In this document: piece after piece, positions 18,417-49,759 of the stretch
Position numbering within the stretch: the stretch's first letter is position 1
Layout: each line of letters starts with the position of its first letter
Assembly (NCBI GenBank): GCA_037189525.1
Contig: JBBCJC010000005.1
Location: 512,001 to 576,000 of the forward strand
Direction of reading: 5' to 3'
Length of the DNA stretch: 64,000 bases
From: Gemmatimonadales bacterium
GTDB taxonomy: Bacteria; Gemmatimonadota; Gemmatimonadetes; Gemmatimonadales; GWC2-71-9
The notes under the pieces: model-generated
What the model saw: only the letters and a program-made list of their open reading frames with translations
Told to the model about the DNA's origin: nothing
Databases searched by the model: none
Made by a program: the position numbers and the translations under genes

Positions 18417-19829
18417 ATGACGACCGAAGTCAGTCTTCTCGCGCAGGTCGACGCCATGTTCGACCAGGCCGCGGCCCTGACACCGCACGATCCGACTTTG
18501 CTCGCGCATATCAAGGCATGCAATGCCGTCTATCAGATGACCTTTCCGATCCGCCGCGACGACGGCACGATCGAAGTGATCCATGCCTGGCGCGCAGAGC
18601 ACAGCCATCACCGGATGCCGACCAAGGGCGGCATTCGGTACTCGATGGCGGTGACGGCCGATGAAGTGATGGCGCTGGCTTCGCTGATGACGTTCAAGTG
18701 CGCGCTGCTGGACGTGCCCTTCGGCGGCGCCAAGGGCGGTATTCGGATTGCGCGCCACAAATATTCCGACGCCGAACTCGAGCGGATTACCCGCCGCTAC
18801 ACCTTCGAGCTCTGGCGCAAGAACTTCATCGGACCCGGCGTCGATGTCCCGGCGCCAGACTACGGCACCAGTTCCCGCGAAATGGCCTGGATTGCCGACA
18901 CCTACCGCAGCCTGAGCAACGACCTCAACGCGATGGCCTGCGTGACCGCCAAGCCGGTTTCGCAAGGCGGTATTCGCGGCCGGAACGAAGCGACCGGCCG
19001 AGGCGTGATGTTTGGCCTCCGGGAAGCCTGTAACGTCGCCGAGGATATGAAGAAACTTGGCTTGGGCCCCGGCCTGGCCGGAAAACGAATCGTGATTCAG
19101 GGACTCGGCAACGTCGGGTATCACGCCGCCAAGCTGCTCCAGGAGCAGGGCGCCGTCCTGGTCGGCCTGGCGGAGTATGAGGGCGCCATCAGCAATCCCA
19201 AAGGGCTGGACGTCGACCGGGTCATGGAGCACCGGAAAAACACCAAATCGATCCTCGGATTTCCGGGAGCCCAGGATATCCCGCAGTCGGCAGCTGCGCT
19301 CGAACTCGAGTGCGACATCCTCGTCCCCGCCGCGCTCGAAAACGTGATCACCGCCGAGAATGCGCCCCGCATCAAGGCCAAGATCATCGGCGAAGCGGCC
19401 AACGGGCCGACCACGGCCGAAGCTGACGGCATCCTCAAGAGCCGGGGCGTCTACATCATTCCCGACTTTTACCTCAACGCAGGCGGGGTGACCGTCTCGT
19501 ACTTCGAATGGCTCAAGAACCTCTCGCACGTCCGCTTCGGCCGGATGCAGCGGCGATTCGAAGAACAATCCAACCTTGGCATCCTGAACCTGGTGCAGCA
19601 GAGCACCGGACGCAGCATCGACGCGGCCGAGTTGAGCCGCATTGCTCATGGCGCGAGCGAAGAAGATCTGGTCAACTCCGGCCTCGAAGACTCCATGGCC
19701 GTTGCCTACCACCAGATTCGCGATATCCTGATCCGGCCCAAGGGCCCGACCGATCTCCGAACCGCGGCGTTCATTTCCGCGATCGACAAGATCGCCGTGA
19801 GCTATCAGGAGCTGGGCCTGTTCCCGTAA
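18417..19829 (+). CDS. gdh: Glutamate dehydrogenase (Glu/Leu/Phe/Val family)
   Basis: PTKGGIRY, PFGGAKGGI, DVPAPD, GRNEATGRG, GLGNVG, NAGGVTVSYFEW. Confidence 0.95.
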   Translation: MTTEVSLLAQVDAMFDQAAALTPHDPTLLAHIKACNAVYQMTFPIRRDDGTIEVIHAWRAEHSHHRMPTKGGIRYSMAVTADEVMALASLMTFKCALLDVPFGGAKGGIRIARHKYSDAELERITRRYTFELWRKNFIGPGVDVPAPDYGTSSREMAWIADTYRSLSNDLNAMACVTAKPVSQGGIRGRNEATGRGVMFGLREACNVAEDMKKLGLGPGLAGKRIVIQGLGNVGYHAAKLLQEQGAVLVGLAEYEGAISNPKGLDVDRVMEHRKNTKSILGFPGAQDIPQSAAALELECDILVPAALENVITAENAPRIKAKIIGEAANGPTTAEADGILKSRGVYIIPDFYLNAGGVTVSYFEWLKNLSHVRFGRMQRRFEEQSNLGILNLVQQSTGRSIDAAELSRIAHGASEEDLVNSGLEDSMAVAYHQIRDILIRPKGPTDLRTAAFISAIDKIAVSYQELGLFP

Positions 19830-19846
19830 GCGAAGGCGGATGAACG

Positions 19847-19885
19847 AAGCGGCCCGTGCGACCGGCAAGGTCACACGGGCCGCTT
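19847..19885. terminator. Hairpin between the convergent gdh and tRNA-Cys
   Basis: AAGCGGCCCGTG...CACGGGCCGCTT inverted repeat. Confidence 0.65.
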
Positions 19886-19903
19886 TGCCTTTGGACAGAA
19901 AAG

Positions 19904-19974
19904 AGGCGCCGACCGGAATCGAACCGGTGATTAGGGTTTTGCAGACCCTTGCCTTGCCACTTGGCCACGGCGCC
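19904..19974 (-). tRNA. tRNA-Cys (GCA), CCA not encoded
   Basis: GGCGCCGTGGCCAAGTGGCAAGGCAAGGGTCTGCAAAACCCTAATCACCGGTTCGATTCCGGTCGGCGCCT cloverleaf. Confidence 0.97.
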
Positions 19975-19978
19975 CGGA

Positions 19979-21205
19979 CTATCGGTCGAGCAGTTCCTCG
20001 ACGATCGCGATGTATTCCCGCACCAGCGCATCGTGGTACGGCCCGCTGGCCTTGGCCGCGAAGCCGCTGCGCACGGCGTGTACCCGCCCTTCCCGATCGA
20101 GGAAGAACGTCGCGGGCCAGGTATTCAGGTTGACGGCCTGCGGCAGCTTGGCAGCCACGTCGCTCGGCTCTCCCGCCACCAGGTACGGATACTCGATTCC
20201 GTACTTCGCGACGAAGGCGCGCAACCGGCCGAGATCCTCCAGCTGTTCCGCCTCTTCGAAATCGAGCGCCACCACTTCCAGTCCCCGATCCCGATAGCGG
20301 CGGTACAGGTCCGCCAGGAACGGCGCCTCGTCGTGGCAATTGGGGCACCAGCTGCCTGTCACGTTGACTACGACCACCTTCCCGGCAAACCGCGCGTCCC
20401 GCTCGGTTACCAGACGCCCGTCGAGATCGGGAAAGGCAAACCGGAACGGCTCAGCCGAGTCGCGAACCCGGGTGTGAGTCGCGGCATCGGCCGGCTCGGG
20501 CAAGCCCCGCGCCCGGGCCAGATCGGGACGAAGCGCCTCGAAGATCCGAGGTGCTCCGCGGGGCGAATGCAGGGTGAGCCGGAGCGTTCCATCCGCCTGC
20601 GGATCGACCTCCAGCCGCGCCGGCCGAGTCCCCGCGAAATGACTGAGCTCGAATCGGGTGCCCGTCCAGGTGCCGGTCAGGGCGCCTGCATCGCCATCGA
20701 CCCGAAGGATGGTGGCCGACACCGCCACTCCCTGCTGCCGGACCACGAACCGCCAGGCGCGCTCGCCCTTGGCGGTTTCGGCCGGCAGGTACCACTCACC
20801 ATCGATGTTGGGCGCCGGGACGGCAGATCGCGCGGTTGCCGTTCCGACCGGCGCGGCCTCGACCGGATGGAATCCGCGCCGTTCGTTGCCATAGCGGCCC
20901 CGGAAGGCCCCGTCCGAGAGCACCCCTTCGAACCTCGTCGCAAGGTGCGCAAATTCGACCACCACGGAATCGCCCTGTCGGCGCACGGCGGTCGAGGTCA
21001 CCGGCACGTCGCCGTTGTAGAGCCGGACCAGCCGGCGCCCGGACTCCGAAGCCCACTCGAGCGGAAAGTCGATGGCGAGCGAGTCATACCGAATCGTTCC
21101 GGTCCAGCGGCCCTGCGGCTCCTGCGCTTCGAGCAAAGCCCCGCCACCCGCCGCGAATCCGAGGACGAGGGCAGACCATGTGGCGCGTTTGAACGTCGCT
21201 GACAT
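19979..21205 (-). CDS. TlpA-family thiol:disulfide oxidoreductase with long N-terminal periplasmic region
   Basis: FAFPDLDG...GSWCPNCHDEAP...WPATFFLDREG; ATG overlaps the upstream TGA. Confidence 0.9.
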   Translation of the reverse strand: MSATFKRATWSALVLGFAAGGGALLEAQEPQGRWTGTIRYDSLAIDFPLEWASESGRRLVRLYNGDVPVTSTAVRRQGDSVVVEFAHLATRFEGVLSDGAFRGRYGNERRGFHPVEAAPVGTATARSAVPAPNIDGEWYLPAETAKGERAWRFVVRQQGVAVSATILRVDGDAGALTGTWTGTRFELSHFAGTRPARLEVDPQADGTLRLTLHSPRGAPRIFEALRPDLARARGLPEPADAATHTRVRDSAEPFRFAFPDLDGRLVTERDARFAGKVVVVNVTGSWCPNCHDEAPFLADLYRRYRDRGLEVVALDFEEAEQLEDLGRLRAFVAKYGIEYPYLVAGEPSDVAAKLPQAVNLNTWPATFFLDREGRVHAVRSGFAAKASGPYHDALVREYIAIVEELLDR

Positions 21206-21678
21206 CAGCGGCCTCCCGGCAGCTGCGCAACGAGCGTAGCCGTCCGCGGTGGCAGGCAGGTGGTCTCGGTGCAGGCCTGATAACGAACTTTGAGCGCGGC
21301 ACCGGCCACAGGCGCCGGCGAGCCGACCCGAACCGGCACCACGAATCGCGGCCGTCCGTCGTAGACCTCGACCGGAATCCCGAACGCCGACGTTTCCTGA
21401 ACGATCGGCGCCGGGCCGGTGACCGCTCCGGCCAGGGAAACCGACTCGGCACCGGGCGCGATTCGCAGTGGAAACGGCCCGCCAGACGTTTGTGTCAGCG
21501 AATACACTTTCCACCCGGGGTCGATCGAGGCCGTCACCGCCAGGGTGACCACCTCGGCATCACCACCACGGGTGGGTACCACGGCTACCGACCAGCGAAC
21601 CGGATCGGGACCCTGGGCCACGACACCCGACACCACGACCGCGGATAGCCAGACAACCAGCTTCAGTGTGACCTGCAT
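21205..21678 (-). CDS. Stand-alone DsbD N-terminal (DsbD-alpha) domain protein
   Basis: Signal peptide, PVRWS, IDPGWKVYS, YQACTETTCLPP. Confidence 0.85.
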   Translation of the reverse strand: MQVTLKLVVWLSAVVVSGVVAQGPDPVRWSVAVVPTRGGDAEVVTLAVTASIDPGWKVYSLTQTSGGPFPLRIAPGAESVSLAGAVTGPAPIVQETSAFGIPVEVYDGRPRFVVPVRVGSPAPVAGAALKVRYQACTETTCLPPRTATLVAQLPGGR

Positions 21679-21745
21679 TTCGTCTCTTTCCTCACCCCGA
21701 GTACCGACGTCCGTTCGAGACTGCGTATTCGGGTAGGCCACAACG

Positions 21746-21775
21746 AAAACGGCCCACCCGTGAACGGGTGGGCCG
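21746..21775 (-). terminator. Intrinsic terminator (attenuator) upstream of dsbD-N
   Basis: CGGCCCACCCG-TTCA-CGGGTGGGCCG followed by TTTTCGTTGT on the minus strand. Confidence 0.85.
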
Positions 21776-21819
21776 GAAGCGTTTGACTGCGCGCCGCCGT
21801 GGCGCAATCGACTGTCGTA

Positions 21820-21891
21820 CTATAGCCGCGCGCCGCCCCACCCGTTTCCGAGGGGACAACAACAGACAGCCTGAGCGCGGACCAGCGACAT
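21820..21891 (-). CDS. Putative Cys-rich leader peptide MSLVRAQAVCCCPLGNGWGGARL
   Basis: GGAG 8 nt before ATG; TGT TGT TGT at 21864-21856; precedes a terminator and carries its antiterminator. Confidence 0.7.
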   Translation of the reverse strand: MSLVRAQAVCCCPLGNGWGGARL

Positions 21892-21926
21892 GGATGATGC
21901 TCCGAACGTAAATGAACTCACGTCGG

Positions 21927-21956
21927 ACAATAATCGGGACATGACGAACTTGTAAA
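21927..21956 (-). promoter_or_regulatory. Possible sigma70 promoter for the leader
   Basis: TTTACA-18 bp-TATTGT on the minus strand. Confidence 0.4.
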
Positions 21957-22072
21957 GTGCGCCCCGGACACCCCGCCGTGACGGACAACACCTCGCGGAG
22001 AATCGGGTCGCGACGATAACTTGATGGATCCAACCGCCCCATCACTCCACATCACCTCTGCGAGCCGCGACG

Positions 22073-23590
22073 ATGCGACGATCGTTTGGCCTGATCCTCC
22101 TTGCTCTGACGCCGACCCTGATCGGCGCCCAATCCACCCCGCGCCCCGACCGCTGGCAACCCGTGCGCGATGCCGCCAACCGGCTCATCGTCGAGCGTGG
22201 TGTAGCGGCGGTTGCCGTCGCCGTTGCCAAAGACGGAAAAATCATCTGGGAAGAAGGCTTCGGCTGGGCCAACCGCGAAAAACTCATCCCGGCCAACGAG
22301 CACACCATGTTCTCGCTGGCCTCGATTTCCAAACCGATCACCGCCACCGGCCTGATGCTGCTGGTCGACCGTGGCCAGGTCGTCCTCGACCGGCCTGCCA
22401 ACGACTACCTCGGTTTCGGCAAGCTGACCGGTCTGGCCGGTGATGCGTCGGGGGCCACCGTCCGGCGGGTCCTGTCCCACACCGCGGGGCTGCCGCTCCA
22501 CTATCAGTTCTTCTACGAGAATGAACCTACCCGACGCCGGCCCTCGATGGATGAGACGGTCGGCCGCTACGGGATCCTGGTCTCCGCACCTGGCGAGACC
22601 TTCCAATACTCGAATCTCGGCTACGGCATCCTCGACGACATCATCAGCCGCGTGTCCGGCCGTTCCTACGCCGACTTCATGCGCACCGAGGTCTTCCTCC
22701 CCCTCGGCCTGACCCGGACCTCGATCGACATCGCCCCGGGCCTCGAACCGTATGTCGCCGAGCGGTACTGGAAGGGCAAGCCGGTGCCGTTCTATACTTT
22801 CGACCACCCGGGCGGATCGGCCGTCTATTCGAGCGCGCACGACCTGGTCCGGTTCGGCATGTTCCACCTCAAGAACAAGCTGCCCGAACAGCGCGCCATT
22901 CTCCCGGAGACCAGAATCGACGAGATGCAGAAGCCGGAAACGCCGGCGTTCGGCTCGCACTACAGTCTGGGATGGGTGGTCGGTCGTGATCGCGGGCATC
23001 GTCTGGTGCAGCACAGCGGAGGCATGCCGGGAGTCAGTACCATCCTCTACCTCTACCCGGACGCCAACGCGGCCATCGTGGTGCTGACCAACGCCTCGGC
23101 CGCCCCGTTCGACCAGGTCCTCGACGAAGCGGCTGCGGTCATCCTGCCCGGCTACGCCGATTCGCTCAAAGCCGAACGCGCCAAACCTCGGCCGACGCCA
23201 GCTCCGGAAGCGTTTACGCCCCCGGCCGAACTGGTCGGCACCTGGACCGGCACCCTGCGCACCTGGACCAAGACACTGCCGTTCGAACTCGAGATTCGCT
23301 CGACCGGAGAAATGCAGGCGCAGATCGGAGAGGCGATGCGCCCCGGCGACGACCCGTTGCTCGGCAGACAACTCCGTGCGCTGGTCAACCTGCCAAGCTA
23401 TCGCGACGGCGTGCTGAGCGGTCGCTTTGCCGGAACCATCCCGACCCCGGACGTCGACTGGGTGGCCCATACCGTCGCCTTCGATCTGCGCCTCGTCAAC
23501 GGCGTGTTGCGCGGTCAGGCCAGCGCCCAGACCGGTATCGACCCCCTCTTCTTTTCGGTTGCTTCGTATCTGGAGCTGCGCAAGCGATAG
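22073..23590 (+). CDS. Secreted serine hydrolase (class C beta-lactamase-like)
   Basis: LASISK, FQYSNLGY, HSGG; signal peptide. Confidence 0.9.
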   Translation: MRRSFGLILLALTPTLIGAQSTPRPDRWQPVRDAANRLIVERGVAAVAVAVAKDGKIIWEEGFGWANREKLIPANEHTMFSLASISKPITATGLMLLVDRGQVVLDRPANDYLGFGKLTGLAGDASGATVRRVLSHTAGLPLHYQFFYENEPTRRRPSMDETVGRYGILVSAPGETFQYSNLGYGILDDIISRVSGRSYADFMRTEVFLPLGLTRTSIDIAPGLEPYVAERYWKGKPVPFYTFDHPGGSAVYSSAHDLVRFGMFHLKNKLPEQRAILPETRIDEMQKPETPAFGSHYSLGWVVGRDRGHRLVQHSGGMPGVSTILYLYPDANAAIVVLTNASAAPFDQVLDEAAAVILPGYADSLKAERAKPRPTPAPEAFTPPAELVGTWTGTLRTWTKTLPFELEIRSTGEMQAQIGEAMRPGDDPLLGRQLRALVNLPSYRDGVLSGRFAGTIPTPDVDWVAHTVAFDLRLVNGVLRGQASAQTGIDPLFFSVASYLELRKR

Positions 23591-47854: not shown

Positions 47855-49759
47855 TCACTTCATCACCGGGAGCCGGATACCGGACGGGTATTCGGGGCCG
47901 CGATGCAGCGTCACCGTCGGACGACCGGTGACCGGCGGCCGCTCGGTGTTGTCGGCATCGGCGCCCATGATGGTGACCCGCAGCCGATGGCCCGCATTGA
48001 AAACCGTAGCTGTCGGATGCAGCGCGATCTGCAGCGTCGCCACCTGGTTCGGCACTAGCGGTTTCCGATCTGCCTTGTTGGCGCGATGCCAGGGCAGCCC
48101 CAGGAAGTTGTAAGGCGGTGTGGTGGTGTCGCGATAGGAGGCTCGCAGGATTCCTTCGGTGACGTAGCGGGAATACCCGGCACTGTCGACCTCGGTGAGC
48201 ACGGCGTAGAAGTCGCCGTCGGTCTGGTTGGAACTGACATGGAGCGTCACCACCGGATGCCCAACGATGGTCAGATCCGCAGCCAACGGCTCGGTCGTGT
48301 AGGTCAGCGCCTTGGCCTCGTTAGGCGCCAGGTCCGGATAGCGCATCGGCCCCTGCCCGACCGCGTTGTCCCAGCGGCTCGCAGTGCCGGTGGTGGTGGT
48401 CAGGTCGACCAGATATCTGTCGCTCCCGGCGGCCGAGGGCGCGGTGCCGAGCACACCGTCGTTGACCGACTCGATGCTACCGGAGCTACCCGCCCCGAAG
48501 AAATAATCGACGTTGCTGACCCCCTTGGCCGGCCATTCGTCAGCCGAACGCCACTCCCATTTGCCCGGATCGATCATCAGGGCGTAGTTGATCCGCGCAC
48601 CGGAATCGACGCCGTTCCGGATACCCTTGAGCCAGCGATCGAACCAGCGATGCTGCTCTGCCCCATAGACCCGGACGAATTCGACGTTGACGATGCTGTC
48701 GTGCGCCGCATGGGCCCAACCGCCCATACCGACTCGCTGCGGTCCCTTGTAGTTGGCAAACCAGAGCATCTCGTCGGTGGCAAAGATGTCGTACCAGCCT
48801 CCGAAATGGTACGCAGGTACCGAGGCCCGATTGATCGCGTCCAAGACACCGGCCGGGTCGTGGCGCGACCAGGCGAAGTCGGGCGTGTCGTAATCGCGGT
48901 TGACAGCCCGGCGATACTGCTCCACCACGTCCCAGTTCTTCTCGTGCATGGCAAGCGCTTCGCCGCGCAGCGCGCCGCTGGTGTCGGCATCGACCGGCGG
49001 CTCGGGAAAGACCTTGTCGAGGCTGTGCGTCAGGATGCCCCAGTGCTGCATCGTGTTCTCGCGATAGATGCCGCCCTCGTACACCAGGTTGTACATGTCG
49101 AACGCCGCCACGTTCGGGAAGATCGCTTTGAGGGCGGGATGCGCGGTGCTCGCGGCCATGTACTGCGTGATGCCCAGATAGGATCCCCCGAACATGCCGA
49201 GGTTGCCGTCGCTCCAGGGCTGCTTGACCATCCAGTCCATCACATCGTAGGCATCGCGCGTCTCGGTCGGCGAGAACAGTCCCTCGTAGCGGCCGAACGA
49301 CGCCCCGCCACCGCGGACCTGAACCGCCACGATCACGTAGCCGTGCCTGATCAGGCGTTGCAGCGTCGGATTGACATCCACCATCGATGGCGCGTTGCGG
49401 CGCGCCAGCGCTTCCTCGGTGGCGCGCGCGGCCGACCCGAGATTGCGAACGTCCCGGCTGGCGAGAAGTGCCGCCGCGTCGGGCGTGCCGCGATGGTAGC
49501 GTGAATGCGTCCACACCACCGGAAACTTCCCGTCGGCCGGCAGGCCGTTGACCGAGGGGCGAATCACGTCGACGGCCAGACGCGTCCCGTCGCGCACGGT
49601 AACGTACTCGGAAGTCCGGACCCATTCGGTGAACCGGGGCTCGTCGTACCCTTCGTACTGCCCGAAGCTGGAAATCCGGCTGCTGTCCTGATCGGCGCTC
49701 CGGGGGGCACAGGCGGCCAGCATCAGCACCGCCGCGGCGGCAAGACTGCGCTGTAGCAT
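47855..49759 (-). CDS. CocE/NonD family hydrolase lipoprotein
   Basis: LAAC lipobox, RDGTRLAVD, GGSYLG, GWYD, PepX_C-like end. Confidence 0.9.
   Translation of the reverse strand: MLQRSLAAAAVLMLAACAPRSADQDSSRISSFGQYEGYDEPRFTEWVRTSEYVTVRDGTRLAVDVIRPSVNGLPADGKFPVVWTHSRYHRGTPDAAALLASRDVRNLGSAARATEEALARRNAPSMVDVNPTLQRLIRHGYVIVAVQVRGGGASFGRYEGLFSPTETRDAYDVMDWMVKQPWSDGNLGMFGGSYLGITQYMAASTAHPALKAIFPNVAAFDMYNLVYEGGIYRENTMQHWGILTHSLDKVFPEPPVDADTSGALRGEALAMHEKNWDVVEQYRRAVNRDYDTPDFAWSRHDPAGVLDAINRASVPAYHFGGWYDIFATDEMLWFANYKGPQRVGMGGWAHAAHDSIVNVEFVRVYGAEQHRWFDRWLKGIRNGVDSGARINYALMIDPGKWEWRSADEWPAKGVSNVDYFFGAGSSGSIESVNDGVLGTAPSAAGSDRYLVDLTTTTGTASRWDNAVGQGPMRYPDLAPNEAKALTYTTEPLAADLTIVGHPVVTLHVSSNQTDGDFYAVLTEVDSAGYSRYVTEGILRASYRDTTTPPYNFLGLPWHRANKADRKPLVPNQVATLQIALHPTATVFNAGHRLRVTIMGADADNTERPPVTGRPTVTLHRGPEYPSGIRLPVMK

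Follow-up and report, generated by a model that had tools for sequence, protein, structure and literature searches.

A predicted cysteine attenuator ahead of a thiol-redox gene pair and a spare tRNA-Cys gene in a Gemmatimonadales genome

Bacterial transfer RNA (tRNA) genes are generally thought to be under global control (growth rate, guanosine tetraphosphate, ppGpp) or under stress repressors. Classical attenuators (trpL and hisL of E. coli, pheST, leuS/trpS of Streptomyces) work with a leader carrying cognate codons, an antiterminator set against an intrinsic terminator, and the sensing of charged tRNA, a mechanism outlined in the accessible text of 10.1101/834739 and PMC1262725. Here we describe a locus with the same three elements on the minus strand of a 64,000-nt stretch of a Gemmatimonadales bacterium (assembly GCA_037189525.1, contig JBBCJC010000005.1, positions 512,001 to 576,000), which is G000:C5:512001-576000 in our numbering and is called the window, G000 being the source genome of 4.65 Mb. 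Classical attenuators carry biosynthetic or synthetase genes, whereas here the leader has Cys codons and is followed by two thiol-redox genes, dsbD-N and tlpA, and by the gene of a tRNA cognate to the sensed amino acid. With a probability of roughly two in three, we read the locus as a kinetic Cys attenuator that responds to slow Cys decoding by releasing the thiol-redox pair together with a spare tRNA-Cys.

The closest described systems differ from this locus in their target or in their mechanism. The uORFC-8-2 motif upstream of cysS in Rhodobacterales has tandem Cys codons and a predicted intrinsic terminator, and was proposed to raise the supply of Cys-tRNA (PMC8632094); in the accessible part of that paper it controls the synthetase and not the tRNA, and UGC dominates, while the leader here uses UGU. 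In mycobacteria, short open reading frames (ORFs) encoding polycysteine make up a 'Cys ribulon', in which several operons are co-regulated by stalling at Cys codons and which is also triggered by VapC4 cleavage of tRNA-Cys (10.1101/834739, PMC1262725, PMC13096801). As far as the available sections of these papers go, the mycobacterial ORFs are leaderless, the studied case is translational and sequesters the Shine-Dalgarno sequence without an intrinsic terminator, and no tRNA is described among the ribulon genes; the leader here is preceded by a Shine-Dalgarno-like element and comes with a predicted terminator/antiterminator pair. Cys-specific T-boxes likewise report the charging of tRNA-Cys by antitermination, their targets being synthetase, biosynthesis and transport genes (PMC2940859, PMC2494555, PMC7778990). 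Unlike the present leader they bind the tRNA directly without a ribosome, and the portions of these three papers that are accessible name no tRNA genes as targets.

Spare tRNA genes are known to respond to stress in the Anabaena trn operon with TrcR (PMC8421152, PMC10272220) and in a set of six tRNA genes under WblC (PMC7157823). These are likewise extra tRNA genes induced by translational stress but, according to the accessible text, by DNA-binding regulators that are not amino-acid specific, whereas the control proposed here acts in cis and is codon-specific for the same tRNA. The literature, including the available parts of PMC2965389 and PMC11404447, covers actinobacterial Cys leaders, a predicted Cys attenuator of cysS, Cys T-boxes and tRNA genes induced via DNA-binding regulators. 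No leader-peptide attenuator with a tRNA gene as target was found in the full-text literature, which largely lacks subscription papers and was taken without supplements and two T-box surveys. According to 10.1101/834739, classical terminator/antiterminator attenuators for cysteine had not been described.

The anatomy of the operon was observed by direct reading of the minus strand, and all coordinates are collected in Table 1. The leader is read as MSLVRAQAVCCCPLGNGWGGARL followed by a stop, and it carries three TGT codons as the original prediction had stated. The promoter-like site ahead of it is the only one found across 18500-23500. The dsbD-N stop TGA (21207-21205) overlaps the tlpA start ATG (21205-21203) as TGATG at 21207-21203, and the tlpA stop TAG (19981-19979) is separated from tRNA-Cys(GCA) by 4 nt; overlap and spacing thus agree with what had been claimed. 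It had also been claimed that no intergenic room is left for a promoter. This holds for the 4-nt gap itself, though a promoter inside tlpA would escape the argument; a relaxed sigma70 scan of the 400 nt before the tRNA, of low sensitivity as detailed below, gave no site in G000 or in two same-genus genomes (G021 and G005), although the leader promoter was picked up in each of them. The terminator scan gave no terminator-like site from the attenuator down to the tRNA; its match at 19927-19909 was rejected, being the T arm of the tRNA-Cys.

The structural elements of a classical attenuator are predicted here. A short translatable leader behind a Shine-Dalgarno-like element carries a run of regulatory codons, with three consecutive cysteines (CCC) kept in three genomes, and an intrinsic terminator lies between the leader and the first gene. 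In constrained folds that hold the ribosome at Cys10 or Cys12 and end the RNA ahead of the terminator 3' arm, 21848-21832 pairs with the terminator 5' arm. The computed antiterminator shares sequence with the terminator and becomes available when the ribosome waits at the Cys codons, while a ribosome placed at the leader stop codon lets the terminator form. The antiterminator duplex was computed at -26.3 kcal/mol and beats 100/100, 99/100 and 100/100 shuffles in G000, G021 and G005, respectively. The link of the operon to cysteine is direct for tRNA-Cys itself and indirect for dsbD-N and tlpA as thiol-redox genes. At the Rfam gathering threshold the whole window gave two tRNA matches only, with no T-box and no family matching the leader. 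An ARAGORN tRNA-Cys at 47999-48067 (+) was discarded as a false positive, as it has no Rfam match and lies in coding-looking sequence.

The tRNA-Cys of the operon is a second copy. A genome-wide count, as suggested in the original prediction, gave 50 Rfam tRNA matches in G000, two of which are tRNA-Cys(GCA), namely the operon copy and a housekeeping copy at C2:795422. The two are 89% identical with the same anticodon, show compensatory changes in the anticodon stem, and have Rfam scores of 67.5 (operon) and 67.7 (housekeeping). The operon copy, observed to be intact with a cloverleaf, the GCA anticodon and U73, looks functional because of these compensatory changes and nearly equal scores. Since it has diverged by only 11% and keeps the anticodon, it should enter the tRNA pool that reads the leader. 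As the housekeeping copy has this anticodon too, any loop would be supplementary and would not control the sole tRNA-Cys.

The whole unit was observed in both same-genus genomes, comprising promoter, leader, terminator, overlap, tRNA and downstream hairpin. The promoter has the same site and distance, the CCC run and the terminator are kept, the tRNA lies 5 nt past the tlpA stop (4 nt in G000), and hairpins of differing sequence occupy the matching position after the tRNA. The pairing of a Cys leader with tRNA-Cys goes beyond chance, because this layout recurs in G021 and G005 and only about four Cys leader-terminator units occur in 4.65 Mb. Among 61 genomes two full-length tRNA-Cys matches were found in G000, G005 and G021, and a second match in G048 lies at a contig end. 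A tlpA match at E<=1e-75 was present in 7 of 401 genomes; none of 15 more distant full-length tlpA homologues (33-40% identity) had a tRNA. A phylum-wide tRNA pattern search, matching 53/401 genomes, revealed no further operon-type copy in Gemmatimonadota, other sequence types being undetectable by the pattern. These matches were mostly single copies, presumably housekeeping, with a Cys leader within 320 nt in 0/24 such loci. A plasmid search gave a partial tRNA match only, and six tRNA matches on viral contigs included none with a leader near the tRNA.

Table 1. Positions of the operon features in the window and of the other Cys leader-terminators in the source genome.
Feature	Position	Strand	Basis or remark
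sigma70-like promoter, TTTACA-18-TATTGT	21927..21956	-	consensus match only; 35 nt before leader ATG
GGAG Shine-Dalgarno-like element, 8 nt before leader ATG	21900..21903	-	direct reading; shared by G021 and G005
Cys leader ORF, 23 aa, TGT TGT TGT at 21864-21856	21820..21891	-	direct reading
antiterminator arm (segment 2), within leader 3' of Cys run, partner 21780-21764	21832..21848	-	folding
intrinsic terminator (attenuator), 11-pair stem and T tail, hairpin 21775-21750	21742..21775	-	terminator scan, folding
dsbD-N, stand-alone DsbD N-terminal domain protein, CxxxxC motif	21205..21678	-	Pfam PF11412, E 2e-13
tlpA, TlpA/ResA-like thioredoxin-fold protein, WCPNC	19979..21205	-	Pfam AhpC-TSA/Redoxin
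tRNA-Cys(GCA), U73, CCA not encoded	19904..19974	-	ARAGORN; Rfam RF00005, 67.5 bits
17-bp hairpin between tRNA and convergent Glu/Leu/Phe/Val dehydrogenase gene	19847..19885	.	probable shared terminator
Cys leader-terminator before OAH/OAS (O-acetylhomoserine/O-acetylserine) sulfhydrylase and MetX-like gene	G000:C5:194819	+	
Cys leader-terminator before phenylalanine 4-monooxygenase; TGC only, two Phe codons	G000:C5:485074	-	
Cys leader-terminator before 717-aa protein, weak choice-of-anchor B match	G000:C2:314714	-	

Recurrence outside the phylum was observed in Acidobacteriota. Two Vicinamibacterales genomes (G430 and G698) have tlpA and dsbD-N in swapped order together with an extra tRNA-Cys, behind Cys leaders, and locus L070 of the same order has tlpA, dsbD-N and, 12 nt past the stop, tRNA-Cys, again swapped relative to G000. 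The tRNA-Cys is extra beside a housekeeping copy in G430, G431, G432 and G698, and this extra type is 66-74% identical to the operon tRNA of G000. Being another sequence type, it suggests that tRNA-Cys was recruited separately in Gemmatimonadota and Vicinamibacterales, as judged from pairwise identity and not from a tree. Ten Vicinamibacterales genomes with two pattern matches were opened; seven had a housekeeping and an extra-type copy and three had two of housekeeping type.

The extra type was used for a metagenome scan with DNA from 80 of at least 120 stretches plus 6 genome loci, and removal of duplicates and of loci with less than 250 nt upstream left 77 loci. Among the matches listed, 20/77 have a Cys-rich ORF within 320 nt of the tRNA, and 18/77 also have a terminator between this ORF and the tRNA with no gene intervening, so that the tRNA comes first behind the attenuator. 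Many of the remaining loci have a low G+C content, lie beside other tRNAs and are probably housekeeping genes of other phyla. As a control, 40 housekeeping loci gave a Cys ORF in 8 and a terminator in none. In the family of G735 (Acidobacteriota) the extra type is found in 34/201 genomes with a looser tRNA pattern (2/201 with the stricter one). Thirty loci were fetched; among the 29 with 1100 nt or more of upstream sequence, 23 have a Cys leader and a terminator within this distance, as against 0/63 housekeeping loci taken from other groups. The gene just upstream of the tRNA encodes a 1-Cys peroxiredoxin in 13 of 15 cases tested, and a separate housekeeping tRNA-Cys was present in 5/5 genomes tested. 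G736 has two leader-terminator-tRNA-Cys units with a solute-binding protein after each, probably sulfate-binding to judge by its motif. The extra tRNA-Cys of Acidobacteriota, different from that of G000, is placed behind tlpA-dsbD-N, behind a peroxiredoxin gene, or immediately after a Cys leader-terminator.

From this material we infer co-transcription, cysteine responsiveness, processing of the tRNA and a feedback effect as follows. A single transcript would start about 30 nt upstream of the leader. With ample charged tRNA-Cys the ribosome would pass the three Cys codons and cover segment 2, the terminator would form and transcription would end. Slow Cys decoding, caused by shortage of cysteine or sulfur, thiol oxidation, or damaged or under-modified tRNA-Cys, would stall the ribosome; segment 2 could then pair with the terminator 5' arm, and RNA polymerase would read through dsbD-N, tlpA and the spare tRNA-Cys, the latter being cut from the transcript end. 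The output would be an exported thiol-reducing pair and more of the tRNA sensed by the leader. Negative feedback would be expected when decoding is held back by too little functional tRNA, as after damage, cleavage or under-modification or with the low tRNA levels of slow growth, and only a weak effect when cysteine is the sole limit. A single tRNA pool serves every Cys leader in the genome, so in the former case the entire Cys regulon should be damped by the extra copy.

Co-regulation of the spare tRNA-Cys is likely, and the cell probably makes more of it when tRNA-Cys works poorly; for a meaningful feedback loop we see about even odds. Of the autoregulatory circuit that had been claimed, tRNA-Cys as an output of a Cys attenuator is well backed by the comparisons above (18/77; 23/29 versus 0/63), while the tRNA turned out to be a spare second copy, so the loop is a supplementary one. 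We would also put at one in two the broader idea that spare tRNA-Cys genes were repeatedly and independently placed under Cys-codon attenuators as a homeostat, in which decoding sets its own transcription and damps the genome-wide cysteine regulon, Gemmatimonadota representing one origin from a duplicate of the host's own tRNA. If true, control of a tRNA gene by an attenuator that reads the codons of its own amino acid would amount to direct homeostasis of a single tRNA, and classical Cys terminator/antiterminator attenuators would be predicted in two abundant soil phyla. This bears on the question whether cells under amino-acid or thiol stress raise the supply of the tRNA concerned, and the direct-form units, being portable at less than 350 nt, could be tested in reporters.

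Several results weigh against this reading. On the full-length RNA the terminator is the stabler fold in both ribosome states, stalled included, so the switch must be kinetic. The antiterminator duplex beats at least 95/100 shuffles in just 17 of 44 leaders overall, with terminator arms located automatically. In G000 one of the Cys leaders stands before the gene for phenylalanine 4-monooxygenase, an enzyme without an obvious tie to cysteine. Only 4 of 80 GTDB tlpA-family loci have a same-strand tRNA-Cys downstream: L031, which is the same locus as G021, L070, and the Bryobacterales loci L051 and L054. The latter two read tlpA, serine hydrolase, tRNA-Cys, carbonic anhydrase, peroxiredoxin, type 2A encapsulin and aminotransferase-V protein, and no Cys leader was found for their tlpA-linked tRNA-Cys. 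Similarly, dsbD-N is downstream in 11 of 30 Vicinamibacterales tlpA loci and tRNA-Cys ends only two of them (those of G430 and G698), and at L287, where a tlpA homologue is followed after 9 nt by an extra-type tRNA-Cys, the 560 nt upstream of tlpA hold no Cys leader. Four Gemmatimonas-like relatives (G057, G194, G250, G282) keep leader, terminator, dsbD-N and tlpA with no tRNA directly after tlpA, as seen with ARAGORN for two and by reading about 250 nt for the other two. The tRNA is therefore a lineage-restricted addition within the phylum and is dispensable for the operon; synteny, to which the original prediction had pointed as a check, holds in the two same-genus genomes and not in these four. 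The proportion 23/29 versus 0/63 overstates independence, because the G735-family genomes are related and the 63 controls are not family-matched. Where cysteine itself is limiting, extra tRNA would presumably restore little charging. The best promoter site of the housekeeping tRNA-Cys scores 6/12 only, so the sensitivity of the sigma70 scan is low, and the last 25 tlpA codons have a synonymous identity of 13/21 (0.62), other windows ranging from 0.17 to 0.70.

An alternative which accepts co-transcription and induction, and which we consider unlikely, is that the tRNA is a mere member of a sulfur or thiol-stress regulon, replacing damaged or cleaved tRNA-Cys or serving as a stress-adapted isoform, with negligible feedback on the leader. 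Extra copies in sulfur or redox operons without a detected Cys leader (L051/L054, L381, L287) fit this, as does the distinct sequence class of the Acidobacterial extra type. On the other hand, among the matches listed the tRNA stands first behind the attenuator in 18/77 loci, and the operon copy, only 11% diverged and with an unchanged anticodon, should join the pool that the leader reads.

We find it quite improbable that the tRNA has its own promoter in the tlpA 3' end, acts independently of the attenuator and owes its position to a duplication. The insensitive consensus scan leaves space for such a promoter, synonymous identity is fairly high over the final 25 codons of tlpA, and four relatives have the operon without the tRNA. 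Nevertheless no candidate site was seen in 400 nt of three genomes, and the recurrence of extra tRNA-Cys behind Cys leaders, as against 0/63 housekeeping loci, is hard to explain without co-regulation.

There is a very small chance that the leader senses another signal, such as the nascent CCC peptide becoming oxidized or binding metal, or ribosomes slowing in general, and that the tRNA is induced by that signal and not by its own shortage. Mycobacterial polycysteine leaders answer to cysteine and to loss of tRNA-Cys, according to the accessible text of 10.1101/834739 and PMC13096801, which speaks for codon sensing. Beyond their Cys runs the leaders vary widely across lineages, which fits codon sensing too, and TGT is enriched; for the other signal one can cite that the regulated genes are largely thiol-redox enzymes and that one G000 leader precedes phenylalanine 4-monooxygenase.

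Although tRNA genes are common integration sites and this one begins so close to the tlpA stop (4-5 nt) that a ribosome terminating there would cover its start, the idea of an integration site or island boundary, or of a structural 3' cap or processing signal for the mRNA, can be practically dismissed, because the operon lies 5' of the tRNA, the last 16 nt of the tRNA occur once in the genome with no duplicated 3' end, G000, G021 and G005 share the dehydrogenase gene on its 3' side, and a cap need not be tRNA-Cys in several lineages, a Cys specificity that largely refutes it. The integration site that the original prediction had named as a way to overturn the loop was thus not encountered.

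With regard to codon choice, TGT makes up 22% of Cys codons in the G000 background (2074 long ORFs chosen by a heuristic filter) against 3/3 in the leader, 8/15 over four G000 Cys leaders, and 111/219 in 44 leaders, the background being that of G000 and not of those other genomes. TGT is enriched in Cys leaders yet not required, since one G000 leader has TGC only. The claim that TGT is the wobble codon of this tRNA is right as far as enrichment and wobble reading go; it is not an obligatory codon, and both tRNA-Cys copies read TGT by wobble, so its use cannot tell them apart. The UGU run additionally pairs within the leader 1:2 hairpin.

A scan of the 4.65 Mb genome gave six matches of a Cys ORF plus hairpin, four of them leader-like; among these, the one ahead of the OAH/OAS sulfhydrylase and the MetX-like gene speaks for the attenuator reading. 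The match at C3:245545 was rejected because it overlaps a gene end and is followed by the terminator of that gene, and the one at C1:124971 because its hairpin is weak. No Cys leader was found in the approximately 550 nt upstream of the single cysteinyl-tRNA synthetase gene.

The genes flanking the operon encode the dehydrogenase and a beta-lactamase-family protein (Pfam). The N-terminus of dsbD-N is signal-peptide-like when judged by eye, and a DsbD N-terminal domain with a TlpA-type domain is a textbook pair. The tlpA product scores under the NCBIfam cut-offs for both TlpA and ResA and is therefore labelled 'TlpA-like'; its N-terminal approximately 240 aa (21205-20490, minus strand) have no Pfam match but show conservation across at least 80 GTDB loci, most of them from Acidobacteriota. 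In five Vicinamibacterales tlpA matches a flagged in-frame TGA is the normal stop and not selenocysteine.

Further observations concern the Acidobacteriota. At L070:2580-3050 two tandem Cys leader-terminators stand ahead of tlpA-dsbD-N-tRNA-Cys. The extra tRNA-Cys of G431 (L151:11499-17306) and G432 (L153) lies within a cluster of tlpA, serine hydrolase, carbonic anhydrase, peroxiredoxin, type 2A encapsulin and aminotransferase-V genes, in which no Cys leader was detected. In 4 of the 30 Vicinamibacterales loci (L134, L139, L140, L141) tlpA is followed, no more than about 1.2 kb downstream, by a same-strand tRNA-Met(CAT). G735 has three extra-type tRNA-Cys (L379, L381, L383) besides the housekeeping one; one follows a PF03601 gene, L381 is flanked by a radical SAM/SPASM gene and a sulfatase, and one stands alone. 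At L301 and L299 a second Cys-rich short ORF follows soon 3' of the tRNA-Cys, which suggests leader-tRNA-leader stacks. Finally, eight Vicinamibacterales housekeeping tRNA-Cys genes (L182, L185, L190, L191, L192, L196, L200, L201) have an upstream short ORF ending in an RCCxCP-like motif with TGTTGT; these ORFs lie mostly about 40-50 nt upstream of the tRNA, have no U-tailed terminator, and could represent either another class of leader or a relic.

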